A DNA stretch of 64,000 nucleotides from an uncultured virus (IMG/VR IMGVR_UViG_3300029319_000009) (taxonomy: Duplodnaviria > Heunggongvirae > Uroviricota > Caudoviricetes): IMG/VR virus record IMGVR_UViG_3300029319_000009; one strand, written 5' to 3'. The notes beneath the pieces were generated by a model. That model was not told where the DNA came from. It was given only the letters and a program-made list of their open reading frames with translations, and ran no database searches. Below, one piece after another: positions 1,850 through 19,356 of the stretch. Each line of letters begins with the position of its first letter. Position 1 is the first letter of the stretch. Position numbers and translations under genes: made by a program.

Positions 1850-2218
1850 ATGGACAAAATCTTAGAACTTTGGGCTAAATTTTTAAAAGAAGCTAAAGAT
1901 CCAAAAGTAGGAACAGGTAAAAAGCCAAAAGGCTCAGGTCGCCGTCTTTACACAGATGAAGATCCAACCGACACAGTTTCAGTAAAATTTCGTACAGCAG
2001 CGGACATTAGAAGAACTTTATCTAAAAAAAGTTTTAAATCTAAGTCGCACAAGAGACAATCACAGATAATTAATTTAATACACCAAAGGGTCAGAGCAGC
2101 ATACAACAATGCTAAAGACCCAGACACTAAAAAGAGACTCAAGACGGCTTTTGAGTATGCTAAAAAGCGAAAGGAAGCTTCAAAGAAAAAAACCGAAAGG
2201 TTGAGGAAGAAGAAATGA
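1850..2218 (+). CDS. Highly basic hypothetical protein, putative head internal/DNA-binding protein
   Basis: 122 aa, very Lys/Arg-rich. N-terminal MDKILELWAKFLKE ends in L-x-E. Confidence 0.7.
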   Translation: MDKILELWAKFLKEAKDPKVGTGKKPKGSGRRLYTDEDPTDTVSVKFRTAADIRRTLSKKSFKSKSHKRQSQIINLIHQRVRAAYNNAKDPDTKKRLKTAFEYAKKRKEASKKKTERLRKKK

Positions 2219-2610
2219 AAATCACCAAAGATAAGTTAAAGGAGATAATCCTTCAAGAGTTACACATGATGATGCCTCCAACCCAGCCACGTCAAATGAA
2301 GCAAGTTAACATGCAAACCATGATGCCTGAGCCAGTAGGAGGCGACCAAGCCCCAGTTAGAACTCTAGATCATGACGATGAAGAGGGAAGAATGGCTAAG
2401 GCTCAGCTTTACAGAGCCATCAAACACGCTCAAGCTATTATGGACAATATTGGCGACAATGATGAGCTAGAAGCTTGGGTTCAATCCAAGATCACAAAAG
2501 CCGCTGATTACCTCGGTTCTGCTAGAAACTATTTAGAGTATGAGTACAAAACAGGCGGTCAAGAGAAGGACATTGCTGTTATTCGTGTGATGGAAAATGA
2601 AGATAACTGA
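2215..2610 (+). CDS. Hypothetical protein, putative head internal protein
   Basis: N-terminal MKITKDKLKEIILQE, then a helical core (EGRMAKAQL...LEAWVQSKITKAADYL). ATGA overlap with the previous gene. Confidence 0.7.
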   Translation: MKITKDKLKEIILQELHMMMPPTQPRQMKQVNMQTMMPEPVGGDQAPVRTLDHDDEEGRMAKAQLYRAIKHAQAIMDNIGDNDELEAWVQSKITKAADYLGSARNYLEYEYKTGGQEKDIAVIRVMENEDN

Positions 2611-2848
2611 ATTAAAAGTAAAAGAGATTATCCGCGAGGAACTACTAAATGAATTCACCACAACGGGAATTGATGTTCCTCGCATTGTCTCTTTACGAAG
2701 ACCAACAAAGAAAAGGTCAAAAGCAAAAGATCCAATGAAAAGACTTGAAAAAGATCTGCACACCACTCAGGACTCCGTTGATAGATTGGAAGAGTTTGTT
2801 CGTGAGATTTACAATATGCTAATTAAGATAGTAAGGAAGAACAGGTAA
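2597..2848 (+). CDS. Hypothetical protein, putative head internal protein
   Basis: N-terminal MKITELKVKEIIREELLNE closely parallels the previous gene. C-terminal coiled coil. Confidence 0.7.
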   Translation: MKITELKVKEIIREELLNEFTTTGIDVPRIVSLRRPTKKRSKAKDPMKRLEKDLHTTQDSVDRLEEFVREIYNMLIKIVRKNR

Positions 2849-4479
2849 TGTGGGATAAAAAAGGTGAAAATCTAGCATTTAAATGGTTCAGAATGCTATC
2901 AGAGCAGAACCAAGATAAGCTAGCCATCATTGTTGGCGATAGCCAGACTGCTTACAGCGGTAGAGCCTTAGAAAACATTCTAAAAGGAGATGGCTACGAA
3001 GTTATCAGAAACTTTAAAACTGGTGAGAACACAAATAAAACAATCCAAAGGCTTTCAAAGATTAGTCCAGATAGACCGGTTAGTTTAGTCGCTGTTTTTA
3101 CAGGTGGCAATAACCCAAACGCAGCTTTTTCTGAAACTGCAACAGCAAATTTAATTGAATTAATAAGAAGAAAGTTCGGTGAAGGTGTGGAAATTGTAAT
3201 CGGTGCTGCCCCTCCAGCGAGAACTGGTAACCCAGCCATAGTGAAAAGGGTCTTTGGTAGAGATTCCCACTCTGAATCTCTCAAAGCTAGAAGAAGAGAA
3301 ATGGCTGATGCTATTATAACAACTGCAAATAGCATGGGCGTAAAAGCTGTCAACCCACACACTGCTGGATTTTTAGATGATGACATCAACACTGGTGATG
3401 GAATTCATTTGAAGGGCTCTGACGCTCAAAACTTTGCTGAAGCCATAGCCTCTCAAATAACTGGCAGGGCAAACACTCAAGCTCCTATTTCTGCCGTCAT
3501 TAAAGATTTTTCAGGTAAAAGACTTGCTACAAGCAAATTAAGAGGACTAGATTTAGTTCAGTTGGCTCGCTATGCTAAGTCCAGAGCATCTGCTTGCCAG
3601 GGTATGGGTTACTTTACCATCGGTTCCAAGGGCGACGAAGTAAAACAAATTCAAGACAAATTGGCTGACCTTGGTTTAAATCCACCCACTAAAGACGAAG
3701 AAGCTTATGGAACATTTGATTTAAGAACCCTTTACAATATTATAGCCTTCCAAAAAATGTCTAAAATCAGAACTGATGGTTGTGTTGGACCAGAAACAAT
3801 GGGTGCTTTGGGATTGAAAGACAAAAAAGAGAAGAAGACTAAAGTAAGACCTTTAATGCCGAGAGAAATTAGTGGAATCTCCAGAAGACACGGTAGAGTT
3901 CCAGAGGGGATGCTACCTGAGATTGTAACTGCAATTAAAAATGCTGCCGAAGAGCATAATGTTCCTGAAGATGTTCTAATGGGTGCTGTTCAAATAGAGT
4001 CAGGATTTAACCCTTATGCTCGTTCTTACACAGGAGCTAGGGGTCTTTTTCAATTTATTGGAAGCACTGGTAGAAGATACGGCTTGGAAACTGATGAAGA
4101 CTTTTATGACTACCGAAAGAATGCTGATGCAGGAGCAAGATTATTTAAAAAGAATTTAGAAGCAGCAGAGCGTGTAGCTGGTTCATTAACAGACGAAACA
4201 GAATTTTTATCTTACGTTGCTCACAACCAAGGTGCTGGTGGCATGAGACAGATTTATAGATCTGCAAAAAGTGGTGGTAGAGTCAAACCAAGCAAGACAG
4301 TTCAAAGAAACATGAGATTGCAAGGCTCTTCTGTAAAAAGAGCCATGGATAAAGATCCAAACAATCCAGCACAAGGATTTTTAGATTTTTTCAAAAACAA
4401 GTGGGGCAAGATGAAAGAAAAGGGAGCGAGAATTTCTGCTGCTGCCCAAACTCCAACCGATAGAGGTCTTGCAGAATGA
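2848..4479 (+). CDS. SGNH hydrolase + peptidoglycan-binding + SLT lytic transglycosylase fusion
   Basis: SGNH blocks VGDS, TGE, TGGNN and DGIHL. PG-binding repeat GSKGDEVKQIQDKL...FQKMSKIRTDGCVGPETM. SLT motifs IESGFNP, ARGLFQF and AHNQG. Confidence 0.88.
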   Translation: MWDKKGENLAFKWFRMLSEQNQDKLAIIVGDSQTAYSGRALENILKGDGYEVIRNFKTGENTNKTIQRLSKISPDRPVSLVAVFTGGNNPNAAFSETATANLIELIRRKFGEGVEIVIGAAPPARTGNPAIVKRVFGRDSHSESLKARRREMADAIITTANSMGVKAVNPHTAGFLDDDINTGDGIHLKGSDAQNFAEAIASQITGRANTQAPISAVIKDFSGKRLATSKLRGLDLVQLARYAKSRASACQGMGYFTIGSKGDEVKQIQDKLADLGLNPPTKDEEAYGTFDLRTLYNIIAFQKMSKIRTDGCVGPETMGALGLKDKKEKKTKVRPLMPREISGISRRHGRVPEGMLPEIVTAIKNAAEEHNVPEDVLMGAVQIESGFNPYARSYTGARGLFQFIGSTGRRYGLETDEDFYDYRKNADAGARLFKKNLEAAERVAGSLTDETEFLSYVAHNQGAGGMRQIYRSAKSGGRVKPSKTVQRNMRLQGSSVKRAMDKDPNNPAQGFLDFFKNKWGKMKEKGARISAAAQTPTDRGLAE

Positions 4480-5819
4480 TTGAAATTACTATCGGCAAAA
4501 CTTTAAACCCCGAGCTTTGGGACGGCATGAATCTAAACTCCGAAGTTCGTGAGAAGCTTTTAGAGATTGCAAAACATTTTGCAGAGTATCTTGATGTTGA
4601 CCAAGCTGCTATTAAAGATGTGACCTTCACAGGCAGCATGGCTAACTTCCACTACGGTCCAAAATCAGACATCGATCTTCACATTATCTTAGACTACAAG
4701 GGCATTGACGATAATGTTGACCTCGTTAAGAAGATGCTGCGAGCTAAGAAAGCCCTCTACAATGACCGTCACGACATTAAAGTCAAGGATAGGGAGGTAG
4801 AGTTATATCCGCAAGATGCGAGCGAACCACACTATTCTACGGCGGTTTATAGCGTTAAAAATGGTGAGTGGATTACTAAACCAACACCAGTTTACGTTGA
4901 CATTGATGACAACATGATTCGTAAAAAAGCTGAAAATCTGATTGATAAAGCCAAACTCATAATAAATACAGAAGATCCGCAGGATAAAGTCGACAGACTT
5001 GAAAAGTTTAAAGATAAGATCATGGAGATGAGAAAAGCTGGCTTAGAAAAAGGTGGCGAGTTCTCAACTGAAAATTTAGTTTTCAAAGAATTGAGAAACA
5101 ACGGCTTTTTAGAAGCGCTTTTAAATGAAATTAACAATTCAATTGATCGATCATTATCTTTAGACGAAATGGAAAAGTATCAAAGACAATCAATTAAAAT
5201 TAATAAAATCAATGTTCCGATTCTGTTAGGGTTAAAGGGTGGAGGTAAAGCTTTTATGCCTCGTAAAAAGAATAAAAAGATGAAGCCCTACATTCATCAA
5301 CCAAAGCCAAACTACCTTTCAGCACCTCCTGGTGCTCCAGGTGGACTAGAGGAGGCTTCAACATCTGCAAATGTTGAAATTTATGGAACAAGATTCCCAG
5401 GGCCAAAGCCGTATAAAAAAATAGCTTACATGGGCTACGCTGGTTCGATAGATCCAAACACGGGCAACAGAGGTAGATTCTTAGTAGAAAAAGAAACTAT
5501 TTATGAGAAGGAAGACCGGCGTGGTGCTACACCAGCATATTGTAGAAGAACACCCTGTAGAAAAATGGGGTTTACACAAAAAGCAAGCTGTAAGTCACAA
5601 GGTATCAAAGACTGCTATCGCGGCAAAAAGAATGAGTCTGAAGAATTAGAAGAGAAAGTTTTAAAACGTGGTGATAAGTATGTATATGTTGACAAGAAAG
5701 GAAAAGTACGAGGCACACACACCAGCAGAAAATCCGCTGAAAAACAGGCAAAAGCTATTTTTATCAGCAGAAATGTTGGAGAAAACATTGAACGCTTAAC
5801 CAAAAAGGAAAAAAAATAA
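4476..5819 (+). CDS. DNA polymerase beta-superfamily nucleotidyltransferase with appended small basic modules
   Basis: TGSMANF...SDIDLH (GS + DxD) and VELY. The C-terminal ~220 aa are short basic segments separated by LDE/LEE/IYE linkers. Confidence 0.8.
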   Translation: MIEITIGKTLNPELWDGMNLNSEVREKLLEIAKHFAEYLDVDQAAIKDVTFTGSMANFHYGPKSDIDLHIILDYKGIDDNVDLVKKMLRAKKALYNDRHDIKVKDREVELYPQDASEPHYSTAVYSVKNGEWITKPTPVYVDIDDNMIRKKAENLIDKAKLIINTEDPQDKVDRLEKFKDKIMEMRKAGLEKGGEFSTENLVFKELRNNGFLEALLNEINNSIDRSLSLDEMEKYQRQSIKINKINVPILLGLKGGGKAFMPRKKNKKMKPYIHQPKPNYLSAPPGAPGGLEEASTSANVEIYGTRFPGPKPYKKIAYMGYAGSIDPNTGNRGRFLVEKETIYEKEDRRGATPAYCRRTPCRKMGFTQKASCKSQGIKDCYRGKKNESEELEEKVLKRGDKYVYVDKKGKVRGTHTSRKSAEKQAKAIFISRNVGENIERLTKKEKK

Positions 5820-6511: not shown

Positions 6512-8026
6512 ATGATTAAAGTCTTAGACAATTCAAAAGATGGAATTTACAATTCCAACATGGAGCTTGTTGACAGCTTCACTGACTATTCATCTAAAAA
6601 TTTAGACTTTGATAAGCCTGTAACAATTGAGTTTATGGATGACGAAGAGAACGCTAAAAATCCACTCGGTACCACCGCTCATTACAATCCTGATGAGATG
6701 AAAATTACCATCTACGTTACAGGTCGTCACATAAAAGACATTCTAAGATCAATTTCACATGAACTAATTCATCACGTTCAAAACTGCCGTGGTGATTTGA
6801 GTGGAATGCAAGACACAAGTTTGGGCTATGCCCAAAGAGACAAACACATGAGGGACATGGAAACTGAAGCTTTCAATTCAGGAAACATCATGAACTTTAG
6901 AGATTTTGAGGATAATTACAAACAGAGGAATCGCAAAATGAGCAAACTACAAGAGAGCAGACTAAGAAGACTAAATGGTCTTTTAATGGGTCAGGACGTT
7001 TTATTGACAGAAGTAAGTCAAAGTGAAGTTAAAGCCGTGGCAGATCGCACCAAGGATTTGAACAAATTGAGATCTGCACCAGCCCAAACAGGAATGGCAG
7101 ACACGCTTACCGGAGAAATTGCTAATTTATTAAGTAAAATTCCAGCAGGACAAGAATTTCAGGATGCTATGAGTGCGATTAATATTGCAGCAGGAACACC
7201 TTTGATGTCAGCAGTAGTGTTATCTGCGGCAAGTCAGAACCAAAAAACACAAATTAACACAATTGTTAACAATAGAATGAAGGCACCAGAAGCTCCAGCA
7301 AAAGCGCCAGTTGTTGCTCCACTTGCCAAAAAAGATGCCGCTAAGCCATCAGCAAAAGCTACCCCAAGAGGTCGTGTTAAATACAGAAAATGCACTAAAA
7401 ACTTTAAAAAAGGTTGTGCTGGTGATAACGTTAAAACTATTCAAGGTCTCCTTTACCTCAACCTAAAAGATACTTTTCTTAAGGGTGTTAAAAGAGAAGA
7501 TTTCGTTGATGGTCAATTTTGGACAGCTACAGATAAAGCAGTTAAAGCTTTCCAGAAAGCTAATAAGCTTGGAGTAGATGGCGTTGTAGGTAAAAACACA
7601 TTAGCGAAATTAGCTGATAAGCAAGTTGCTAGAATGAAAAGCAAGAGAGCCAAAGCTGCTCCAAAAGGCGCAGCAGTTCCACCACCAGCAGTGCCAGGAG
7701 TCGCCCCAGAAGAGATTCCTGTGGACGTTGAGCTTTCACCACGTCAAGCTGTCCAAACAGCAATGAAAATGATGAGAGTAATGCCACGTAGACCATGGTC
7801 AAACGAGTCTTCTGAATTGGCAGGCAGAACAGTTCTACACTACATAAGAAAGGGCGATAGACCAGCCAAAGCTTACGAAAAAGCCTTAAAAATCTTTGGT
7901 TTGCAAGGTAGACTAACTAAATTAGGACCAGTTAGTCGTGGTGTCTGGATGAGATCATTCCTAGACAAGCTTGGAATCATGAGCGTAGATGATCTACCAA
8001 CGCTACCAAGACTACCAACCGAGTAA
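6512..8026 (+). CDS. HExxH metallopeptidase-like domain + peptidoglycan-binding domain protein
   Basis: SHELIHHVQ...ETEAF zincin-like motif. PG-binding repeat KGCAGDNVKTIQ...DGQFWTATDKAVKAFQKANKLGVDGVVGKNTL. Ala/Pro-rich linkers. Confidence 0.75.
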   Translation: MIKVLDNSKDGIYNSNMELVDSFTDYSSKNLDFDKPVTIEFMDDEENAKNPLGTTAHYNPDEMKITIYVTGRHIKDILRSISHELIHHVQNCRGDLSGMQDTSLGYAQRDKHMRDMETEAFNSGNIMNFRDFEDNYKQRNRKMSKLQESRLRRLNGLLMGQDVLLTEVSQSEVKAVADRTKDLNKLRSAPAQTGMADTLTGEIANLLSKIPAGQEFQDAMSAINIAAGTPLMSAVVLSAASQNQKTQINTIVNNRMKAPEAPAKAPVVAPLAKKDAAKPSAKATPRGRVKYRKCTKNFKKGCAGDNVKTIQGLLYLNLKDTFLKGVKREDFVDGQFWTATDKAVKAFQKANKLGVDGVVGKNTLAKLADKQVARMKSKRAKAAPKGAAVPPPAVPGVAPEEIPVDVELSPRQAVQTAMKMMRVMPRRPWSNESSELAGRTVLHYIRKGDRPAKAYEKALKIFGLQGRLTKLGPVSRGVWMRSFLDKLGIMSVDDLPTLPRLPTE

Positions 8027-8030
8027 TAGA

Positions 8031-11000
8031 ATGTCAAAATTATTAACCCTTAAAGAAGTAGTAGAGATGAACTCATCAGAGTTCAATGAAATGTTTTTAG
8101 AAGAAAAGGAGCTTTTACAAGAAGACTTATTTTCTTTAGGAACTCTTAGCACAATTTTTGCCACTCTTTGGGTTAGAAAAGAAGCTCAGGCAGCAAAAAC
8201 TGCTATGGCGTCTTTTTTAGAGAAACAAGGTCACGCCGAGGTAGCAAAAAAATTGATGCCTGTTACCAAAAGACAGGCAGCAGCAAAAATCTTTAGAGAG
8301 TTTTTTGAACGACTTGGAACAAGAGGTTCAAATTTAGCCAGAGCGATGTTTAGGAGCCTTCTTGGAAGAGAGTCCACTAGAAAAATTTTACAAAGAGTGG
8401 CACCTAATCTGCTAAGAACATTACCAGCATTAGAGTTTGTGCCTTTATCTGTTGGGTCCATTACTACTGCTGGCGCTGGCAACATTGCTGCCGGTGCAAC
8501 AATCGCGGCAGGTGTAGGTGCTTTAGCTGGCTACCTAATCAACACTGCGATTTATTCTTCATTTTCTGAAGAACTACAAGAGAGAATTGAAAGAGCAAAA
8601 GCAAATCCAAACTATGCTAAGGCTGAATTAGATCTTTATTGTGGTGGCAGAGGTGCTCTTTGTAAAGACGAAGTGGAGTGCTCAGGACAACCTGGAGGCT
8701 ATGTTTATGAGACTGCCGGTGAAGGCGGTGGCTTTTTCAGTCGTCTTGGCGCAACACCCGGCGAAAGAGAGAAATTTGGAATAATTGATCGTCGTTACAG
8801 ACAAACACCAAACTCATTCCACGCAAATGATGGTGTTGCAATGGTCGCTATGTTAAAAATTTTAGTGGCAAAAGACATAAAAGATGGCAAAATTAAACTA
8901 ACTGGTGGTAAAAAAGCAGAAGTCTCTCCTGATGCAGAATCACTTAAATATAAAAATTGTGTTGAAAAACGACTTTTTGCATCGTCTGTCATGACAAGTA
9001 AAATTAAAAAAGCGGGATTGGCGGGCGACTATGAATTGTTAATGTTGACGTTAGGCTTTAAAGAGATTCCAAAGTTGAAGAAAAAAGATAAAGCAGCACC
9101 AGTTGGCAAAGAAGAGAACATTTGCAATAGCTATCCAATGACTGTTGGTTGCAAAGGTCAACAACCAGCTACAACAGTTGCCATTTTAGTGAGAACAACA
9201 GAATCTGGTAAACGAGCCTTTAAGGCAAATGAGAAAAAGTTTGAAAAGATCTATGCAGATAAAGTTTACACTGAGGAAGTTAAAGATTTTATTGAAGACA
9301 CTTTAAGATCAATAACAGATAAAGAAATTAAAGAGTTAACAGCTAATTTACAACTAATAGATCCCGAATTTGCCGAAGAGATTAATCCAAGCAAGATTGC
9401 TGACGAGTTTAAGGCAAAAGGCGGCAAAATCACTGTTAATGATTCACTTGATGATTTTCTCTTTAAATTGGCTAAAACTAACAGATTAATTGAGATGCTA
9501 AGAAGTGGCAAACTACAAACATTAATCAATGAAGCGCTTGAGGAAGAGATGCTGCTTCTAGAAGGCGGCGCTGGCGGTCACATGCGTCACCCATTTGATT
9601 TAGATGATGTCAAAACTGGTGAAGATTTAATCAAAAAGTTCGAACAAATTGGTTCTGAAATTGAGGGTGGTAATCGCCCAGACACAAAAATCGACGGTGT
9701 AAACACAAGCATTAAGATTGTTGACACTCCAGAAGGCAAGCAATTTGCTATGGATCGCGGCTCGTCAAAGCCCATTGATGTTGAAGGCATCACAGTAAAT
9801 CGCTTACCTGAAAGATTCAGCGCTGGCCACGGAATGATTCCAGCCGGTGAAAATGTCCTAGGCATTTTTAATGATGCTTTAAAAGACGCCGAACCTGAAC
9901 TAAAAGAATTAGGCGTGCTTGATGATCCAACTAAGTTTTTTAACATGGAATACGTCAAGGGCACAACTAATGTACTAGCTTACGATCATGACTTCTTAAA
10001 AATTCATGGTGTTAACCAGTTTTACGAAAAGAAAAATAGAAAAGGTCAGCCAGTAAGACCAGGACTAGAAAGACCAATAGATCCAGAAACTAAGAAAACA
10101 ATTAAAGATCCTTCAGTTCCAGTAGCTTATGATCAAGAAGTTATGGATAGATTGGTAGAAAAACTAAATAAAGTTGCAGATAAGTATGGTTTTAAAGTTT
10201 ACTCAGCAATCCCATCTACATCAACAGGTGATTTTGACTTCAACCCAGTTATGAATGTTCCAGTTCCAGTAACTTACTCAACAGGCGACATCAGAGAAGA
10301 GACACTTGGAGAAAGACTTAAAGCAGCTAAGAATAGAATTAAAGAGAAAGTTCGCACTGTTGATGGTCGAACACCACCAGCGCAAGGTAAAGAGATTTAC
10401 AAAGCTGTTCTTGGTGCCTCCGCTGCTGATACAAACGCAGATCCAGAGAGACAGATTCCTTTAGACGAGCTACTAGCATCTGACGATGACTACCAAAGAG
10501 CTATTGACGGCGCTGTATTTTGGCACGCTACAAGGCTCTTAGGCAACGTTATTATGAATAACATGGTAGTAGACCACCCTGCCGTCTCAGGACCCGCTAC
10601 AGAGCACGAGGGGCTCGTCATCAGGCTATCTGGTGATGGCTTTGATACAAAGATTACTGGTGAGTTTATCTTGGGCGGCGAGGCTACATCATTTAGAGCC
10701 GCTGAGCCAGAAGCAGCCAAGGAAGTAAAAGCTAAAAACATCGCTATCTTCCCAGGATCATTTAAGCCACCACATAAGGGACACTTAAGTATCATTGAAA
10801 GAATAGCTAAGAATCCTGAAGTTGATGAGATTAAAGTAATCATTTCAGCACCCGGCAAAAAGGTTCGTAGCCCAAAGGTTACACCTGAGAAGGCAAAGGC
10901 TATTTTTGAAAAGTTTATTTCAGCAGCCAACATCTCAAAGCCAGTTAGCGTAGAGATTGCATCTCAGCCAAGCCCAATCGGTGCTGCTTACGAGTACATT

Positions 11001-11696
11001 GGAGAGAAGGCTGGTCCAAATGAGAACATCATGCTTCTAACTTCTGAAGCTGACGCAAAGCGTTACCCACAAGCTGTTCTTGATAAGGCTGTTGCATCAA
11101 ATAAAAATGCTGACACGGTTACAGCCAGAGGCTTTGTCCTTCCAGTCTGTAGAGATGAGGGCTGTGACACAACAGCAAAAGTTAGTGCTACAACAATTAG
11201 AAACATTGTAGATGCTTACCCAGAGATTACTTTACAAGATCTCACAAGAGCCATTGATCACATGCCTGAAACAATGTCTACAGCAGATAAACTAGCTGCT
11301 TTTGAAATGCTAGTAGATGATAGCCTTTCTAATAAATTTGAAGATGAAGAGTTAAATACTTTAAATGAATCTGTTAGATTTATAATGGAAACTATTGATA
11401 AAGCATTAGATGTAGTATTACTTACTGAGAAGGTTAGAAAAACAAAAGGTAAACAAGAATACTGTGTTGTTTCTAAGAATAAGAAAACTAAAGAAGGTAA
11501 GCTTAGAACTTATGGCTGCTACAGAAGTAGAAAAGCAGCCAACAAAAGATTGGGTCAGGTGGAGGGCTTTAAAGCAAGAGCCATGGCTGAGGGTGAAGAG
11601 GTTGAAGAATATGAAATTGTAGAAGCTTCAGTTTCTTCAGGTATGGCAATGGGATATGCTGGACCATTTAAAGGACTCATAAGAGAGGAAGACTAA
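8031..11696 (+). CDS. Large multidomain protein: hydrophobic Gly/Ala N-terminal region, KxDG ligase-like domain, HIGH-type nucleotidyltransferase, basic C-terminal module
   Basis: Likely start ATG 8031, just after stop 8026. Ligase-like motifs GHMRHPFD, TKIDG, EHEGLVIR and KITG. HIGH-family motifs IFPGSFKPPHKGH and VSATTIR. Confidence 0.78.
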   Translation: MSKLLTLKEVVEMNSSEFNEMFLEEKELLQEDLFSLGTLSTIFATLWVRKEAQAAKTAMASFLEKQGHAEVAKKLMPVTKRQAAAKIFREFFERLGTRGSNLARAMFRSLLGRESTRKILQRVAPNLLRTLPALEFVPLSVGSITTAGAGNIAAGATIAAGVGALAGYLINTAIYSSFSEELQERIERAKANPNYAKAELDLYCGGRGALCKDEVECSGQPGGYVYETAGEGGGFFSRLGATPGEREKFGIIDRRYRQTPNSFHANDGVAMVAMLKILVAKDIKDGKIKLTGGKKAEVSPDAESLKYKNCVEKRLFASSVMTSKIKKAGLAGDYELLMLTLGFKEIPKLKKKDKAAPVGKEENICNSYPMTVGCKGQQPATTVAILVRTTESGKRAFKANEKKFEKIYADKVYTEEVKDFIEDTLRSITDKEIKELTANLQLIDPEFAEEINPSKIADEFKAKGGKITVNDSLDDFLFKLAKTNRLIEMLRSGKLQTLINEALEEEMLLLEGGAGGHMRHPFDLDDVKTGEDLIKKFEQIGSEIEGGNRPDTKIDGVNTSIKIVDTPEGKQFAMDRGSSKPIDVEGITVNRLPERFSAGHGMIPAGENVLGIFNDALKDAEPELKELGVLDDPTKFFNMEYVKGTTNVLAYDHDFLKIHGVNQFYEKKNRKGQPVRPGLERPIDPETKKTIKDPSVPVAYDQEVMDRLVEKLNKVADKYGFKVYSAIPSTSTGDFDFNPVMNVPVPVTYSTGDIREETLGERLKAAKNRIKEKVRTVDGRTPPAQGKEIYKAVLGASAADTNADPERQIPLDELLASDDDYQRAIDGAVFWHATRLLGNVIMNNMVVDHPAVSGPATEHEGLVIRLSGDGFDTKITGEFILGGEATSFRAAEPEAAKEVKAKNIAIFPGSFKPPHKGHLSIIERIAKNPEVDEIKVIISAPGKKVRSPKVTPEKAKAIFEKFISAANISKPVSVEIASQPSPIGAAYEYIGEKAGPNENIMLLTSEADAKRYPQAVLDKAVASNKNADTVTARGFVLPVCRDEGCDTTAKVSATTIRNIVDAYPEITLQDLTRAIDHMPETMSTADKLAAFEMLVDDSLSNKFEDEELNTLNESVRFIMETIDKALDVVLLTEKVRKTKGKQEYCVVSKNKKTKEGKLRTYGCYRSRKAANKRLGQVEGFKARAMAEGEEVEEYEIVEASVSSGMAMGYAGPFKGLIREED

Positions 11697-12656: not shown

Positions 12657-12942
12657 AGAACAGAAAAAAATTAGCAAGGATGTTGAAGCTCTAATTGCTA
12701 ATCTTACTGTTGAAGAACTAGTCCATTTAAAATTAGAGATAGGTGCCAAAGCCCTCAATGGTGAACCTTATGGTTTTAAGATCTGGTTTGTCCTTCCAGA
12801 CATGATTAAAACAAGCTTAATTGAATTTACAAAGCAACATTTTAATACTAACAGTTCAGCCAGCAGGTTCCTTGGTGTGGACATGAAGACATGGGGTTTT
12901 TTGAAAAAGAGGTCTAGTTATAAAACTGGGGACGATGAATGA
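12634..12942 (+). CDS. Putative Fis-like helix-turn-helix protein
   Basis: C-terminal TNSSASRFLGVDMKTW resembles the Fis-type NxxxAAxxLGI HTH. Confidence 0.5.
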   Translation: MSILKSLREQKKISKDVEALIANLTVEELVHLKLEIGAKALNGEPYGFKIWFVLPDMIKTSLIEFTKQHFNTNSSASRFLGVDMKTWGFLKKRSSYKTGDDE

Positions 12943-13111
12943 GTTTAAATAGAAATGATATAAAGACAGAACTTTATCGCTTAACTGGTCTTGGTTCAAT
13001 CACAGATGAGCAAGCAGCTAAAATTTTTGAGAAATCTTATGAAAATCAAACACCCAATCAAGATACATTAACTGGCGTTAGTGATGCTGCTGCTGATTGG
13101 GTACAACAAAA
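12939..13111 (+). CDS. Hypothetical protein, interrupted by an assembly gap
   Basis: ATGA overlap with the previous stop. Open until the N run at 13112; the true end is unknown. Confidence 0.5.
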
Positions 13112-13121
13112 NNNNNNNNNN
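13112..13121. other. Assembly gap (10 N)
   Basis: Ten consecutive N bases. Confidence 1.
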
Positions 13122-13128
13122 TTAAAAA

Positions 13129-14127
13129 ATGTCAACTGCCGCTTTAGACAATTATTATCTCTATAGAAAAACATCCGACACGGGTAGATTATCTTTATCT
13201 AGCCCAACTGCTGTTCACGCAGCAGGAGTAGATTCTAACATAACAGGTCTAATAAATATTGGATTTACATTTAACTTTAATAACACAGATTACACTCAGT
13301 TCGCAGTAAGCACTGATGGATATGTTGAACTTGGTGCTCGCGGCGGCAATGATTATACGAACGATCTAATACAAGTGGGCTCCAGAATTCTTTTATGCCC
13401 ATGGTGGGATGATTTAAGAACTAGGGCTGGCGGCACTGGTGTTAGATATGAGTTACAAGGATCTTCAGGAAGTAGAAAATTAATTATTGATTTTCATTGT
13501 CAGATTCAATGGAACAACACCGCACCAGAACTTAAGTTTCAATGTGTTCTTTATGAGGGTACAAACAGAATTGAATTTAGATATGACGATCCAAATAGTT
13601 CGTCTACTGGCACTAGTAGTGCCACCTGTGGTGTAAAAATAGCAATTACTAGTAATTCTGGCACTGATGCTGATGGCAAATTTCGTGATTTTATCGGTTC
13701 AACCACCGCACCTTATAGCACAGAGAATAATGCTAAAGGCGGCTGGTCTCAAAAAATGCTTGATGGAGGCGTAATTAAAATCCCAAATAACGCTTTAAAC
13801 GGCAATGAGGGCAGGGACTTCCCCGGTGACCCCGACAATGATCAGCAGAGCCAACAATACTATTTCTTATTTTCACCAGATGCTGAAAGTAGTGGCGGTG
13901 GAGGTGACGATAGTGGCGGTGGAGGCGCCGATAGTTTTCCAAATAAACAGGTCAAAGTGAACGGAAAAAGGTACAACTCAAAATTTATTGACGAAGAATT
14001 AAAAAATTTATGTTATCAATATGATCGAGGCGAAAAACTAACTGATTTTGTTCCAATAAGACTTAAAGTTCGTGGTCCATCGAACTTAAGATCTCGTAGC
14101 ACAGTTTACAAAGTTACAAAAGGATGA
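13129..14127 (+). CDS. Beta-rich protein with nidogen/NIDO-like extracellular domain; possible virion decoration/adhesin
   Basis: IGFTFNFNNTDYTQFAVSTDGYV, LCPWWDDL and FQCVLYEGTNRIEFRY. An SGGGG x2 linker precedes a short basic C-terminal domain. Confidence 0.55.
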   Translation: MSTAALDNYYLYRKTSDTGRLSLSSPTAVHAAGVDSNITGLINIGFTFNFNNTDYTQFAVSTDGYVELGARGGNDYTNDLIQVGSRILLCPWWDDLRTRAGGTGVRYELQGSSGSRKLIIDFHCQIQWNNTAPELKFQCVLYEGTNRIEFRYDDPNSSSTGTSSATCGVKIAITSNSGTDADGKFRDFIGSTTAPYSTENNAKGGWSQKMLDGGVIKIPNNALNGNEGRDFPGDPDNDQQSQQYYFLFSPDAESSGGGGDDSGGGGADSFPNKQVKVNGKRYNSKFIDEELKNLCYQYDRGEKLTDFVPIRLKVRGPSNLRSRSTVYKVTKG

Positions 14128-14459: not shown

Positions 14460-14693
14460 ATGGAGGCGAATACACTATTCGGACGACCTTGGAAGATTGC
14501 AGGTCGTTTTGATACTTTTGAGGCAGCAGATAAAAAGAGAAATCAGCTATCCTCAAATAAAAATTTACAAGTAAAAGTTAAAAAACAATTAAAGGGTTTT
14601 GTAGTTAAGACTCGCTCAACAGAAGTCGACCCACCCAAAGAAGAGAGAAAGTCCCGTAAGAAGCAACGGAAGGAGAGGGCAAGTGATCGCTGA
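14460..14693 (+). CDS. Small basic hypothetical protein
   Basis: 77 aa with a strong SD (AGGAGGT) just upstream. Confidence 0.75.
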   Translation: MEANTLFGRPWKIAGRFDTFEAADKKRNQLSSNKNLQVKVKKQLKGFVVKTRSTEVDPPKEERKSRKKQRKERASDR

Positions 14694-15693
14694 TGTAGTC
14701 GTTGGCCTTCAGTATGGTGATGAAGGCAAAGGTAAAGTTACTCACCATCTTTGTAAAACAGGAGGTTACACACATGTCTTACGCTTCAATGGCGGCTGCA
14801 ATGCTGGGCACACTATTTTTCATGAAGGTAGGAAGTTTATTACTCACCACATTCCAGCGGGTGTTTTCTTTGGGATTAAAAGTATTATTGGGAACGGCTG
14901 TGTTCTTGATCCTGTACAATTTTTCCGAGAGTTGGATGAACTTGAGTCAGGTGGAATCGACACTAGGGGACTTATTTATGTGGCTAAAAACTGTCATGTA
15001 ATCACAGATAACCACAAGGAAGAAGACGGTAAGGACAGTAAGATTGGTACCACTAAGCGAGGTAATGGTCCTGCTTACCGAGACAAGTATTCCAGAGCAG
15101 GTATGTTGGCTAAAGACCATCCAGATCTTAAGCCCTATCTAATCGATCTTCATGATGAGTTCTGGAATCACGGTGAGGTTAAAATCCTCTGTGAAGGTGC
15201 TCAAGGCTTCGGACTAGACATTGATTGGGGAGACTACCCTTTCGTAACTTCAAGCCATTGTCTGACATCCTCAGTGCTTTTAAATGCTATTCCACACTAT
15301 GCCATCCGTGATGTGTGGGGAGTTGCCAAAGCTTACGAGACTTATGTCGGTGCTAAACAGTTCCAACCACCACATAACAGAGTGTTTCAACACATTCAAG
15401 AGGCAGGACAGGAGTTCGGAGCAACAACAGGCAGAGTTCGACAGTGTAATTGGATCGACCTACCATTTTTGAAGAAGTCAGTTCAGTTGAATGCTGTAAA
15501 TAAAGTTGTTTTTAACAAGATTGACATTTTACGACAAGTAGATCACTGGAGCTTGAAAAACAATGATGGCAAGGCAAATTACTATGAGTATTACTCCTCA
15601 GAAGAGGATTTTACACACAGAATTGAAGAGTTTTTATCTGATGCGGTGAAAGACCTTGAGATCCATTTCTCAGACAATCCGCACAGAATATAG
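14683..15693 (+). CDS. purA: Adenylosuccinate synthetase (short form)
   Basis: QYGDEGKGK, GGCNAGHT, IGTTKRGNGPAY, EGAQG, YPFVTSS, EFGATTGRVR and NKID. 336 aa. Confidence 0.93.
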   Translation: MIADVVVGLQYGDEGKGKVTHHLCKTGGYTHVLRFNGGCNAGHTIFHEGRKFITHHIPAGVFFGIKSIIGNGCVLDPVQFFRELDELESGGIDTRGLIYVAKNCHVITDNHKEEDGKDSKIGTTKRGNGPAYRDKYSRAGMLAKDHPDLKPYLIDLHDEFWNHGEVKILCEGAQGFGLDIDWGDYPFVTSSHCLTSSVLLNAIPHYAIRDVWGVAKAYETYVGAKQFQPPHNRVFQHIQEAGQEFGATTGRVRQCNWIDLPFLKKSVQLNAVNKVVFNKIDILRQVDHWSLKNNDGKANYYEYYSSEEDFTHRIEEFLSDAVKDLEIHFSDNPHRI

Positions 15694-15702
15694 GAGAATA
15701 AA

Positions 15703-15915
15703 ATGAGAGATAAATTTTTTAAATTTCATTACAAGAATGATAAAGAAAGTTTAGCAACCAGTTATGATGTCGTCTTTGACGACTTCTCAGAGGCGATGAA
15801 GTTCGCTTATGACAAGCTAGATGAATTAAATGGGTTAGTTGGCGGTTATAGAATTATCGGTGTTTATGAAATTCTTTACCCAGCTAACTCTTACAAACCA
15901 AACCAAATCAACTAA
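15703..15915 (+). CDS. Hypothetical protein
   Basis: 70 aa with an AGGAG SD upstream. Confidence 0.7.
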   Translation: MRDKFFKFHYKNDKESLATSYDVVFDDFSEAMKFAYDKLDELNGLVGGYRIIGVYEILYPANSYKPNQIN

Positions 15916-15932
15916 TTATAAAAGGAAACAAC

Positions 15933-16595
15933 ATGACAAGATATTATTGGTGCGACGATAAAACCAAAGAGAAAATCGAAGAAGAGTCTCAAGATGAAGG
16001 TGTAACACCAATCATTCTTATGGGTGGACCTGAAGGACCACCGCCTGCGATGGAATGCATTGATGTAATGGATAATACAATTATGTTTTATGGCGAAGTT
16101 AGCGAGAAGAATGCTAAGCTACTAAATAAAGCAATTAGAACCATAGATAAGGACCTACAAGTTTTTAAGGTTAAGTATGATTCAGACCCGCCACCAATTA
16201 AACTACACATTAACTCTTACGGTGGATCTGTTTTCGCTGGCTTCTCAACTGTAGATGTAATTTTAAATTGTAGAACCCCAGTTCACACTTACATCGATGG
16301 TTCAGCCGCTTCGGCAGCAACACTTATTTCTGTTGTTGGAGATAAGAGATTTATTTACGAGCACTCACACATGCTTATCCATCAGCTTTCCTCAGCTATG
16401 TGGGGCAAGTTTGAGGATTTCAAAGACGAGATGGAAAATCTAGATTTGTTAATGACGAAGATTAAGAAGATCTACAAAGAAAAAACAAACATGTCTATGC
16501 GACAAATCACAGAGATACTTAAAAGAGACAAGTGGTTCGAAGCAGAAAAGTGTGTAGAGCTTGGACTTGTCGATGAGATTGTAGAAAATGGCTAA
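15933..16595 (+). CDS. clpP: ClpP-family protease
   Basis: INSYGGSV, AASAA (catalytic Ser), MLIHQ (His) and RDKWF...GLVDEI. AAAGGA SD. Confidence 0.88.
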   Translation: MTRYYWCDDKTKEKIEEESQDEGVTPIILMGGPEGPPPAMECIDVMDNTIMFYGEVSEKNAKLLNKAIRTIDKDLQVFKVKYDSDPPPIKLHINSYGGSVFAGFSTVDVILNCRTPVHTYIDGSAASAATLISVVGDKRFIYEHSHMLIHQLSSAMWGKFEDFKDEMENLDLLMTKIKKIYKEKTNMSMRQITEILKRDKWFEAEKCVELGLVDEIVENG

Positions 16596-17904
16596 AAAAA
16601 CTTATGTTTTAGATACAAATGTTTATCTTTCTGACCCAACAGCTTTTAAAAACTTTGGAAGAAACGATGTCGTTATTCCATTAAAGGTTCTTGAAGAGAT
16701 TGATAAGCATAAGAAGAGACAGGACGGTGTGGGGGCTAATGCTCGCCACACCATTCGTCTTTTGGACGAGTATCGTGGAAAGGGTTCTCTTGAAAAGGGA
16801 GTTCGCATTGAGAAGGGTAAGGGTTTGCTAAGAGCAAGAATCTCTGATGTTAATGCCCTCCCAGCCGAGTCAAATAAAAGAGACCCAGATAACATTATTC
16901 TTGCCTGTGCTTTGAATGAAGTAAATGATGGTAAAAGAGTAGTTGTTGTTTCCCGCGACATTAACCTCAGAGTCCGCTGTGACGCCCTTGGAGTAGCTTG
17001 TGAGGGCTACGACATAAACCAAGTCGTAAATGACCGTAGCGAGCTTTACACGGGCTTTGAGAGGTACTTGGTAGATGACCAAACAATCGATCATTTCTAT
17101 GCTGGTGAAAAAATCTTTGTAGATAAAGAAGAAAAGTTGTTATTACCCAATCAGTTTGTAATGTTGATCTCTAATTGTAATGAGAAGAAAACTGCCTTGG
17201 CAAGATTCTTAGCATACAACAAGCCACTCGTAAAGGCAGGGATCCACAAACATGGAGTCTGGGACATCACACCAAGAAACAAAGAGCAGTCTTTTGCCAT
17301 TGATCTCTTATTGGATCCAACTATCCCTATTGTATCCCTCATTGGTGCCGCTGGTTGCGGTAAAACTCTATTGGCTGTGGCTGCTGGATTGGAACAAGTT
17401 TTAGATGAAGGTTCTTTAGAGCCAATCTATAACAAGCTTGTAGTTTCTAGACCAATCATGCCTATGGGTAGAGACATTGGCTTCCTTCCAGGCACAATGG
17501 AAGAGAAGATGGCTCCTTGGTTAGCTCCAGTTCAAGATAACTTGAAGTTCTTGATGGGGAATGATAAGGTAGCCCTTGAAATGTACGCTGAAAGAGGTAT
17601 TATCGAGATTGAAGCTTTAACTTACATTCGTGGTCGTTCTATCGCAAATGCTTTTATTATCATTGACGAGGCACAGAACCTATCAGTTCACGAATTAAAA
17701 ACAATCATCACTCGTGTTGGTGAGAATACAAAGATCGTTCTTACGGGCGACATCGAGCAGATTGACACTGTTTACTTGGATGCTACCAGCAACGGTCTAT
17801 CCTATGCTGTAGAAAAATTTAAAGAACACGATCTAGCAGGTCACATTTCACTACAGAAGGGTGAGAGATCAAAGGTAGCTACACTAGCAGCTAAGGTATT
17901 GTGA
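16588..17904 (+). CDS. phoH: PIN domain-PhoH ATPase (PhoH2/YlaK-like)
   Basis: PIN motifs VLDTNV, DNIIL and SRDINLR. Walker A GAAGCGKT. PhoH motifs IRGRS, IIDEAQN and GDIEQID. Confidence 0.93.
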   Translation: MAKKTYVLDTNVYLSDPTAFKNFGRNDVVIPLKVLEEIDKHKKRQDGVGANARHTIRLLDEYRGKGSLEKGVRIEKGKGLLRARISDVNALPAESNKRDPDNIILACALNEVNDGKRVVVVSRDINLRVRCDALGVACEGYDINQVVNDRSELYTGFERYLVDDQTIDHFYAGEKIFVDKEEKLLLPNQFVMLISNCNEKKTALARFLAYNKPLVKAGIHKHGVWDITPRNKEQSFAIDLLLDPTIPIVSLIGAAGCGKTLLAVAAGLEQVLDEGSLEPIYNKLVVSRPIMPMGRDIGFLPGTMEEKMAPWLAPVQDNLKFLMGNDKVALEMYAERGIIEIEALTYIRGRSIANAFIIIDEAQNLSVHELKTIITRVGENTKIVLTGDIEQIDTVYLDATSNGLSYAVEKFKEHDLAGHISLQKGERSKVATLAAKVL

Positions 17905-18566
17905 TGTCTTTAAGGTCATTTATCGCAGAAAGTCATAAGAAGAACTCCCATAAGGGTGTTTTAGGTGTTGAATTTATTATTCAAGACAAAGGTAATTTTA
18001 ATTCCAGAGAAATAAACTTTTTTATCGACAAACTTAAAGAAACACTTTCCCCAAAGGCTCTTAACCATGTAAATAAAATAAAGTTTGGAAGGTTTCCAAA
18101 CTTAGACAAAGAGAACTACAAGTCTTACTACAAGGATGGAACAATTTATCTTTCCAATCAGGTAGACTTTGTAGAAGATCTTTTAATGAACTTCTTTCAC
18201 GAGCTAGCTCACTCATTTGAGAAGCCTTACTATGAAGAAATCTACGAGGACGGCTTCTTAGCAAAAGAATTTAAAAACAAAAGAAATCAACTTAAGAATG
18301 TAATTTCAATGTACGAAGGCGGTAGAACACCACCTTTCAACTTTAATAATATAAACTACTCAAAAGAGTTGGATGATTATTTAGTAAACACAATAGGGTA
18401 TGATAAACTTTGGAAGTATTGCTCAGGCATTTTTACAAACCCTTATGCCGCAACATCATTAAGAGAATACTTCGCAGCCGGTTTTGAGAACTGGTTGAAG
18501 GGCAATCAAGAAATGCTTTACAGGACGAGCCCAGTGTTGTATAATAAACTCAGACAATTTTTTTGA
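17904..18566 (+). CDS. HExxH zinc metallopeptidase-like protein
   Basis: FHELAHSF plus downstream YAATSLREYFAAGFE, the zincin third-ligand pattern seen in lethal-factor/PPEP-like proteins. Confidence 0.65.
   Translation: MSLRSFIAESHKKNSHKGVLGVEFIIQDKGNFNSREINFFIDKLKETLSPKALNHVNKIKFGRFPNLDKENYKSYYKDGTIYLSNQVDFVEDLLMNFFHELAHSFEKPYYEEIYEDGFLAKEFKNKRNQLKNVISMYEGGRTPPFNFNNINYSKELDDYLVNTIGYDKLWKYCSGIFTNPYAATSLREYFAAGFENWLKGNQEMLYRTSPVLYNKLRQFF
18517..18545 (+). promoter_or_regulatory. Putative sigma70-type promoter
   Basis: TTTACA (18517-18522), N17, TATAAT (18540-18545). GAGGA SD and ATG 18574 lie downstream. Confidence 0.65.
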
Positions 18567-18573
18567 GGATATT

Positions 18574-19356
18574 ATGCCACATATTTCTTATTCAGAACTT
18601 AAAAACTGGACCATGTGTCCGCACTACAGGAAATTAGTAAATGAAGATAAACTTAATCCGCGTACTGATTCTATTTTTACGACCTTTGGAACGGCTGTTC
18701 ACTCTGTGTGCGAGGAAATTGCACCAATGGATCACCAAGTTAGCGATCCAACTACACTCTTTGAAAGCCGATTCAAGGAAGAACTCACAAAACTAGAAGA
18801 TATAGAACAAAAAACAGTAGATCAATTTATGAACCAAGGTAAGGAGATCGTAGTAGAAGTCACCGAAGCCTTAAAAAACTATTTTGGTGAGTATGAAGTT
18901 CACCAAGTTGAGGAGCAACTCTTTGAGCGAATCATTGAGTTTCCTAAAAAAGAGTATGACTTTAAGGGCTATGTTGACCTTATCGTTAAGACCCCAGACG
19001 GCAAGTACCACATTTTAGACTGGAAGACTTGCTCTTGGGGTTGGGATGCCCGTAGAAAAGCAGAAAAACTTACCACTTATCAGCTTACTTTTTACAAAAA
19101 GTTTTTTGCTGAAAAGTATAGTGTTGACCCATCAATGATTGAGACTCACTTTGGACTACTCAAGCGAACAGCTAAGAAAGGAAAGAAGGTTGAGATCTTT
19201 AGAGTTACAAGTGGTGATAAAAAAACTAAAAATGCTGTTAAACTTTTAACAGATGCCTTGTATAATATTTCTAATGAAAGACACTTAAAAAATCGGCTAA
19301 GTTGCCATAAAATGTACGGAACTTGCCCATTTTTTAGAACGGAACATTGTACATGA
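18574..19356 (+). CDS. PD-(D/E)XK nuclease, Cas4/AddB-like
   Basis: ISYS...CP, FGTAVHS, GYVDL, ILDWKT and QLTFY. C-terminal Cys cluster (SCHKMYGTCPFFRTEHC). Confidence 0.85.
   Translation: MPHISYSELKNWTMCPHYRKLVNEDKLNPRTDSIFTTFGTAVHSVCEEIAPMDHQVSDPTTLFESRFKEELTKLEDIEQKTVDQFMNQGKEIVVEVTEALKNYFGEYEVHQVEEQLFERIIEFPKKEYDFKGYVDLIVKTPDGKYHILDWKTCSWGWDARRKAEKLTTYQLTFYKKFFAEKYSVDPSMIETHFGLLKRTAKKGKKVEIFRVTSGDKKTKNAVKLLTDALYNISNERHLKNRLSCHKMYGTCPFFRTEHCT

Follow-up and report, generated by a model that had tools for sequence, protein, structure and literature searches.

Peptidoglycan O-acetylation has been studied as a control on autolysins and as a defence against host lysozyme, and it is much less of an obstacle to peptidases, amidases and glucosaminidases. 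When MurNAc is O-acetylated at C6, lysozymes and lytic transglycosylases are blocked (PMC6174289), and Gram-negative bacteria strip this C6 acetyl group with the SGNH esterase Ape (PMC6174289; PMC6783866). The Neisseria proteins Ape1 and LtgA associate into a complex of about 100 kDa and stimulate each other (PMC7083599). On the phage side, the endolysin gp144 of phiKZ (PDB 3bkh) combines a peptidoglycan (PG)-binding domain with a lytic transglycosylase, and a gp144-like endolysin has been joined by engineering to a phage GDSL lipase in the chimera ELP-E10, which kills Pseudomonas from outside, needs both active sites and carries its esterase C-terminally; a surface polysaccharide is proposed as its substrate, and the text available does not raise peptidoglycan O-acetyl groups (PMC12173070). 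In T4, diverse cargo is directed into the head by short propeptides, and the cleavage site of the prohead protease lies after L/I-X-E (PMC9026906). The internal head protein gp16 of T7, a podophage lytic transglycosylase without an esterase, shows that head-borne transglycosylases exist (PMC5380687).

A role in wall O-acetylation has been voiced for stand-alone phage SGNH proteins from Curtobacterium prophages (PMC9862828) and Proteus virus 309 (PMC9229222), speculated from annotation and with no glycan-cutter fusion in the passages concerned. In the text available, the SGNH review PMC9487903 contains no word beginning with 'phage', the virion-enzyme review PMC5380687 does not mention 'O-acetyl', and PMC4633669 and PMC9558356 hold nothing useful on glucosaminidases or phage lysins facing O-acetylation. 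Our searches of the open-access literature, with few subscription papers in it, listed no natural phage SGNH–lysin fusion.

Here we analyse a gene in a window of 64,000 nucleotides, which is the start of a linear 119.7 kb virus record estimated to be 66% complete. The record encodes a terminase, a prohead protease, a T4-type capsid protein and a tail sheath, and its phage is, as read from these sequences, a large myophage from a marine, T4-like clade of such phages; relatives of the capsid protein are all less than 60% identical, and there is no close cultured relative. The protein encoded at 2848..4479 has the PG-binding and lytic transglycosylase parts in common with gp144, which matches its residues 258–472 by sequence (E 2e-6) and by profile (E 6e-21) and is the top fold match of the full-length model. 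Unlike the protein described here, which is likely head-packaged, gp144 is an endolysin with neither an SGNH domain nor an LxE leader. ELP-E10 has the same three domain types but is man-made. The proposed two-step logic is that of Ape1–LtgA, placed in one phage chain rather than in two bacterial housekeeping proteins. As in the T4 internal head proteins, a short conserved propeptide precedes variable cargo, a likeness at the level of the motif (PMC9026906).

Domain layout and catalytic residues

The gene, its parts and its flanks are listed by window position.

2848..4479, plus strand: whole gene, leader–SGNH–PG-binding–lytic transglycosylase, 543 aa (ORF call, Pfam, full-length model)
2848..2904, plus strand: leader of 19 residues ending L-S-E, a putative capsid-targeting propeptide with prohead-protease site (motif search, T4 rule)
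2911..3462, plus strand: SGNH hydrolase domain (model, fold search, alignment, motifs)
2941–2943, 3022–3024, 3109–3111, 3397–3399 and 3406–3408, plus strand: SGNH residues S32, G59, N88, D184 and H187, respectively
3511..3816, plus strand: clade-specific helix and PG_binding_1 domain (Pfam part 3631–3810), flanked by conserved C250/C312
3850..4476, plus strand: lytic transglycosylase module, gp144-like (Pfam SLT 3934–4272; catalytic E384 at 3997–3999)
3792..3846, plus strand: module-swap junction; similarity among relatives runs up to it, is lost across the catalytic module and resumes at about 4475
2215..2848, plus strand: upstream flank with two small genes, of which the one closer to the slot has an N-terminal LxE-type motif
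4476..5819, plus strand: downstream flank of the slot, a conserved nucleotidyltransferase-like gene

A sequence-only reading of this DNA had seen a complete SGNH set, a PG-binding domain, an SLT domain with its catalytic ES motif and a leader ending in LSE, and each of these could be located. A motif search of the 543-aa protein places GDSQ at residues 30–33 (2935–2946), the block II glycine G59 within TGENT, the block III Asn N88 within GGNN (residues 86–89) and DGIH at 184–187. Pfam finds PG_binding_1 at residues 262–321 (E 1.6e-9) and SLT (PF01464) at 363–475 (E 3e-16, 59.4 bits against a cut-off of 21.3), both above cut-off; Lipase_GDSL_2 matches residues 31–188 (E 2.9e-5) with 25 bits, under the 32.9-bit cut-off that close homologues pass, for example P0015 at 41.7 bits. 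The catalytic Glu of the ES motif, E384, lies in QIESG (residues 382–386), a GLxQ-type motif is also present, and E384, S385, G399 and L400 are invariant in 21 of 21 SLT rows, so that by Pfam and catalytic motifs the module is a predicted lytic transglycosylase. Cys250 (3595–3597) and Cys312 (3781–3783), which flank the PG-binding domain and are both kept in 69 of the 70 family domains, may form a disulfide, which hints at an oxidising workplace for the protein. Hydropathy over 19 residues peaks at 0.82, so that the 543-aa protein lacks any long hydrophobic segment, and a signal peptide or membrane anchor was rejected.

The fusion is real and not an assembly artefact, since homologues sharing its three-domain make-up run at 44–97% identity, and contigs from two public seawater runs cover 30 of 30 bins of 2400–5000, with no single piece spanning all of them. 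Four runs, all of them seawater or marine metagenomes, contain at least half of the sequence words of the stretch, and no RNA run is among those listed. Four shorter forms of 67–133 aa were treated as fragments, three on contigs under 1 kb and the fourth, P0182, on a 4.4 kb contig.

The SGNH assignment was examined by structure and by conservation. Residues 22–210 have a pLDDT of 94 in the AlphaFold model and hold a compact 184-residue domain, and in the full-length model (pLDDT 83, pTM 0.44) loose linkers join three well-folded parts. Foldseek with the SGNH model gave 235 matches at E<=0.001, to SGNH structures, the best 50 of which have Z 15.5–17.5 and rmsd 2.1–3.5 over 162–180 aligned residues; by modelled fold and block residues, the domain belongs to the SGNH hydrolase superfamily. 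D184 and H187 are kept in 52/52 SGNH domains and S32 in 50/52, the two exceptions being without the N-terminal stretch, which is present in P0224, a cluster mate of one of them (P0029). The triad is kept across domains 22–30% identical, and this conservation makes a catalytically idle binding or spacer domain hardly credible, despite the Pfam score under cut-off and despite the oxyanion (block III) Asn being His in 10/52 domains, which keep the triad. The His-for-Asn subclade comprises L015:8064-8654, L016, L028, L033 and L034.

The fold does not reveal the substrate, because the Z score of PatB (17.2) is level with those of an isoamyl acetate esterase (17.5) and PAF acetylhydrolase (16.6); OatA-type structures reach 16.3. 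The nearest cell-wall SGNH relatives are, on weak indications, the PatB/DUF459 and OatA-type (SGNH-AT3) domains, at 15–16% identity. PatB is among the best profile matches (E 0.007–0.009), DUF459 (PF04311) is matched at E<=1 by eight of the 14 members (lowest E 4.6e-4), the window's own domain not among them, and the D-G-I-H of block V is that of the Ape2/PatB family (PMC1199599). Both relatives are transferases, and these matches would be accounted for by a domain that, like PatB, transfers O-acetyl groups to the host wall, perhaps as a guard against superinfection. We hold this to be very improbable. Block II Gly marks hydrolases and is replaced by Ser or Asn in PatB-type transferases (PMC12148441), and the phage domains have Gly in 46/52 cases, the window's own among them (Ser in 4, Ala in 2). 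Moreover, acetylation would block the fused cutter, and there are 0 MBOAT/PatA matches among 55 window proteins.

The comparison with Ape1 that the sequence-only reading had drawn stands for the proposed function but not for family membership. Ape1 motif I reads GDS(H/F) and motif VII Dx(V/T)H, where the phage domain has GDSQ and DGIH, and the CBM35-like insert that follows motif I in Ape1 subfamilies 1a and 1b is absent, as it likewise is from subfamily 1c (PMC1199599). No Ape1 entry is among the fold matches listed, which are top rows with tied scores and leave room for kinship. The SGNH domain has 0 matches at E<=1 in 50,697 annotated phage records and a pattern scan of GTDB genomes gave no relative, and so it offers no host clue; a search of the ESM Atlas returned generic GDSL clusters only.

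The leader: head packaging or lysis

All 80 leader proteins carry [LIM]xE at residue 19–24 (at residue 19 in 71 of them), and the leader accompanies all types of cargo. The genome also encodes a gp21-type prohead protease (phrog_207, E 7e-53, G000 86769–87359). A stricter LxE motif, with a pattern chosen after seeing the sequences, occurs within the first 60 residues in only 7 of 106 genes, four of them in the head-assembly cluster (protease and capsid included) and three in this neighbourhood. Separately, a leaderless PG-binding protein (G000 116888–117814; L003:12888-13814) matches endolysin PHROGs and is likely the endolysin; Pfam does not match its catalytic part, which is, going by motif, presumably M15-like. 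Because of the shared L-x-E leader and this separate endolysin candidate, head packaging appears distinctly likelier than a role in lysis.

The same chemistry could instead operate at lysis, with the protein acting as a second endolysin and not as a virion enzyme, an alternative that is compatible with the substrate proposed below. Its architecture of PG-binding plus SLT is that of gp144, and the LxE motif is short. Yet the leader's presence on all cargo types, the rarity of the stricter motif outside head genes and this neighbourhood, and the leaderless candidate all speak against it, and we regard a lysis role as doubtful, though worth keeping in view. Where the sequence-only reading had left the choice at entry or lysis, a head-packaged virion protein is thus favoured over an endolysin. 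A point against head packaging is that it gives no route by which such a protein would reach the wall from a phage with a contractile tail.

A variable slot and the pairing of its modules

Compared with loci taken from viral and metagenome contigs, the ORF at 2848–4479 fills a hypervariable gene slot of the marine T4-like myophage clade. Its neighbours are a conserved block, with a trypsin-like protease, NUDIX and small genes, on one side and the nucleotidyltransferase-like gene on the other; the slot carries one or two proteins with the same leader but differing cargo. The DNA of L004 is 91.6% alike over 2404–3813, differs across the catalytic module and matches once more from 4475; L012 is alike up to 3792, and L015 is alike from 3846. 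A contig of run X4 departs from the window's sequence at 3807 and, on our reading of the letters, continues into the module of P0006. In P0013, P0026, P0033, P0040 and P0041 the SGNH domain adjoins the cutter with no binding domain between, and in four proteins an internal leader copy separates an extra front amidase from SGNH–SLT. Fusions of two slot genes that keep the internal leader and LxE site were seen in L020:484-3645, P0012, P0013 and P0023, and such fused proteins may possibly be protease-cut polyproteins.

Several other features of the window were recorded. Near the slot, a second PG_binding_1 protein (6512–8026) has a conserved N-terminal part with an HExxH-type motif, and its relatives have a variable tail and are sometimes split. 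The neighbouring 1235-aa protein (7989–11696) has a weak cytidylyltransferase-like match; its relatives are two genes with a variable N-terminal part, which makes this another variable slot. Positions 14683–19356 encode adenylosuccinate synthetase, ClpP, PIN-PhoH, a PD-(D/E)XK nuclease and a possible zinc peptidase (weak M90 match). About 24 genes for glycan synthesis or modification follow in a run at 19347–42070, with at least six glycosyltransferases, a carbamoyltransferase, GDP-mannose dehydratase, an epimerase, UDP-glucose dehydrogenase, methyltransferases and radical SAM; this run probably serves virion or DNA glycosylation. A short AT-rich motif recurs at 1839, 5497, 6501, 11704, 13481 and 15911 (raw sightings) and sits just 5′ of the gene starts at 1850, 6512, 11715 and 15933; it is possibly a late promoter or ribosome-binding element. 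A run of N at about 13115, an assembly gap, breaks the ORF at 12939–13166.

All collected proteins and locus frames with the leader or an SGNH-profile match were pooled into a set of 92 distinct sequences. Ten of these are without a motif-recognised module (seven SGNH-bearing fragments, two SGNH-free fragments and P0032), and the remaining 82 were counted. All 58 SGNH-bearing proteins carry a lysozyme/transglycosylase-type module, of eight types: five SLT subtypes (17, 11, 9, 2 and 1 proteins), PF11860 muramidase (8), PF18013 phage lysozyme (6) and an Apf-like module (4). P0032 has SLT by Pfam and is hence the 59th such protein. In contrast, all 24 SGNH-free leader proteins carry peptidase, amidase or glucosaminidase-type enzymes only: M15_4 (6), VanY (6), Amidase_2 (3), GH73 (4) and an RNNNPGN domain with M15_4 (5). 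Module labels come from our own motifs, checked on representatives with Pfam, and those of SLTc (PF01464 E 0.001) and the Apf-like module (NF052397 E 7e-4) are weak. Bond specificities of the PF18013, Apf-like and weaker SLT modules are presumed ones that follow family names; we take the Apf-like and PF18013 domains to cut MurNAc–GlcNAc. The RNNNPGN domain weakly resembles the Enc34 endolysin (7q47, E 0.002), which its authors inferred to be a glucosaminidase (PMC8943055).

Since the sequences are kin, a per-sequence p for the 58/24 split is meaningless. Fisher's test gives p 0.0008 by module type and 0.03 by family, the latter becoming 0.14 if the Enc34-like lysozyme-fold domain (five SGNH-free proteins) is an exception. 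A quick tree of the 52 SGNH domains shows 24 changes of partner module. The binding-domain tree, with 70 rows, has 29 such changes; on it the presence of SGNH coincides with module class throughout but switches only four times. The well-supported branches yield one independent pair and the best tree four, numbers at which a sign test could not reach significance. The window's protein served as query for the initial searches. Sampling viral contigs through the gene downstream of the slot gave six loci, all already in the set, and further sampling likewise brought in no new family member, so that the set is not an unbiased one anchored on the flanks. Because the set is defined as 'leader or SGNH', SGNH-free transglycosylases of other phages are left out of it; P0078 and P0085, with PG-binding and SLT but no SGNH, show that other phages' transglycosylases do without the domain. 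L037 and L042, which have neither leader nor SGNH and lie outside the set, are peptidases and fit the pattern. Within the clade, the pairing of SGNH with lysozyme-fold modules is the split that a MurNAc C6 de-O-acetylase predicts, as far as the labelled modules go, and swaps behind the esterase that involve eight glycan cutters and never a peptide cutter alone likely point to acetyl removal.

The pairing could also be a matter of history, with two paralogous lineages in one slot, swaps confined within each lineage and an esterase that has some other job. The four changes of SGNH presence fit such a history, a single SGNH origin is compatible with the well-supported branches of the binding-domain tree, and the two-gene slots L016 and L017 each hold one SGNH-type and one SGNH-free gene. 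However, modules have been exchanged between binding domains that differ as much as those of the two kinds do. Phage-lysozyme modules 97% identical sit behind binding domains 28% alike, muramidase modules 93% identical behind domains 32% alike and M15 modules 77% identical behind domains 34% alike; the domains in front of near-identical modules are overall only 27–50% alike, and SGNH-free binding domains are 44–59% alike to SGNH-linked ones. For this reason, lack of homology does not explain the split. The SGNH-free group is also spread over both main binding-domain clades, in the amidase fusions SGNH remains beside SLT behind the internal leader remnant, and outside the clade P0160 shows the same SGNH–PGB–SLT order with a distant SGNH domain and another leader. 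We therefore consider a purely historical pairing unlikely, and a shade more so than the surface esterase discussed next.

As a lipase or surface-polysaccharide esterase, the SGNH domain would open LPS, capsule or EPS and give the transglycosylase access to the wall. LPS or capsule is the substrate given for known phage SGNH/GDSL enzymes (PMC5380687), and ELP-E10, with its two required active sites and proposed surface substrate, is a working precedent from engineering (PMC12173070). The domain also has a weak PHROG 'lipase' match (E 4e-4). Peptidases and amidases need access to the wall too, yet SGNH is found in 0 of the 24 leader proteins that carry such enzymes or glucosaminidase-type ones, and it is tethered to a PG-binding domain or straight to a glycan cutter. 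On this balance a surface substrate seems unlikely.

Proposed mechanism and meaning

The intact triad, the block II Gly of the hydrolase state and the pairing lead us to read the domain as a de-O-acetylase for the fused cutter. As a whole, the reading that we favour, with moderate confidence, is of a head-packaged SGNH esterase–transglycosylase chain whose esterase would remove the MurNAc C6 O-acetyl group so that the transglycosylase could cut the wall. The leader would target the protein to the prohead and be cut after E19, and the mature 57 kDa protein would reach the host wall at infection, where the binding domain would hold it on the glycan. S32, H187 and D184 would then hydrolyse the C6 acetyl ester, and E384 would cleave MurNAc–GlcNAc and form a 1,6-anhydro end, for which the freed C6-OH is required. 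The peptidases, amidases and glucosaminidase-type enzymes that sister phages carry in the same slot would not need an esterase because they attack other bonds. The idea that the protein is a two-step enzyme, first deacetylating and then cutting, came from the sequence-only reading; the pairing of SGNH with glycan cutters argues for it, and with few independent contrasts it keeps the standing of a probable interpretation.

The protein is a new variant of virion-associated lysin as predicted here, with de-O-acetylation as the best explanation of its esterase. O-acetylation as a barrier to phages, and a phage counter to it, are not settled in the open-access literature, and a small soluble protein with two point mutants makes the question testable, while the swapped cassettes are a ready panel of natural chimeras that join one esterase with eight cutters. 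If the reading is true, the domain would represent a peptidoglycan de-O-acetylase family related to Ape1 by fold only, the protein would be the first natural one-chain deacetylase–lysin shown to work, and it would be a useful reagent for digesting lysozyme-resistant walls. For the clade, the balance is even on whether it runs a counter-defence slot against wall O-acetylation as a marine anti-phage barrier. In that reading, the slot would encode a head-delivered wall-breaching protein which either joins a new de-O-acetylase family to any of eight glycan cutters or avoids the acetyl group by means of a peptidase, an amidase or a glucosaminidase.
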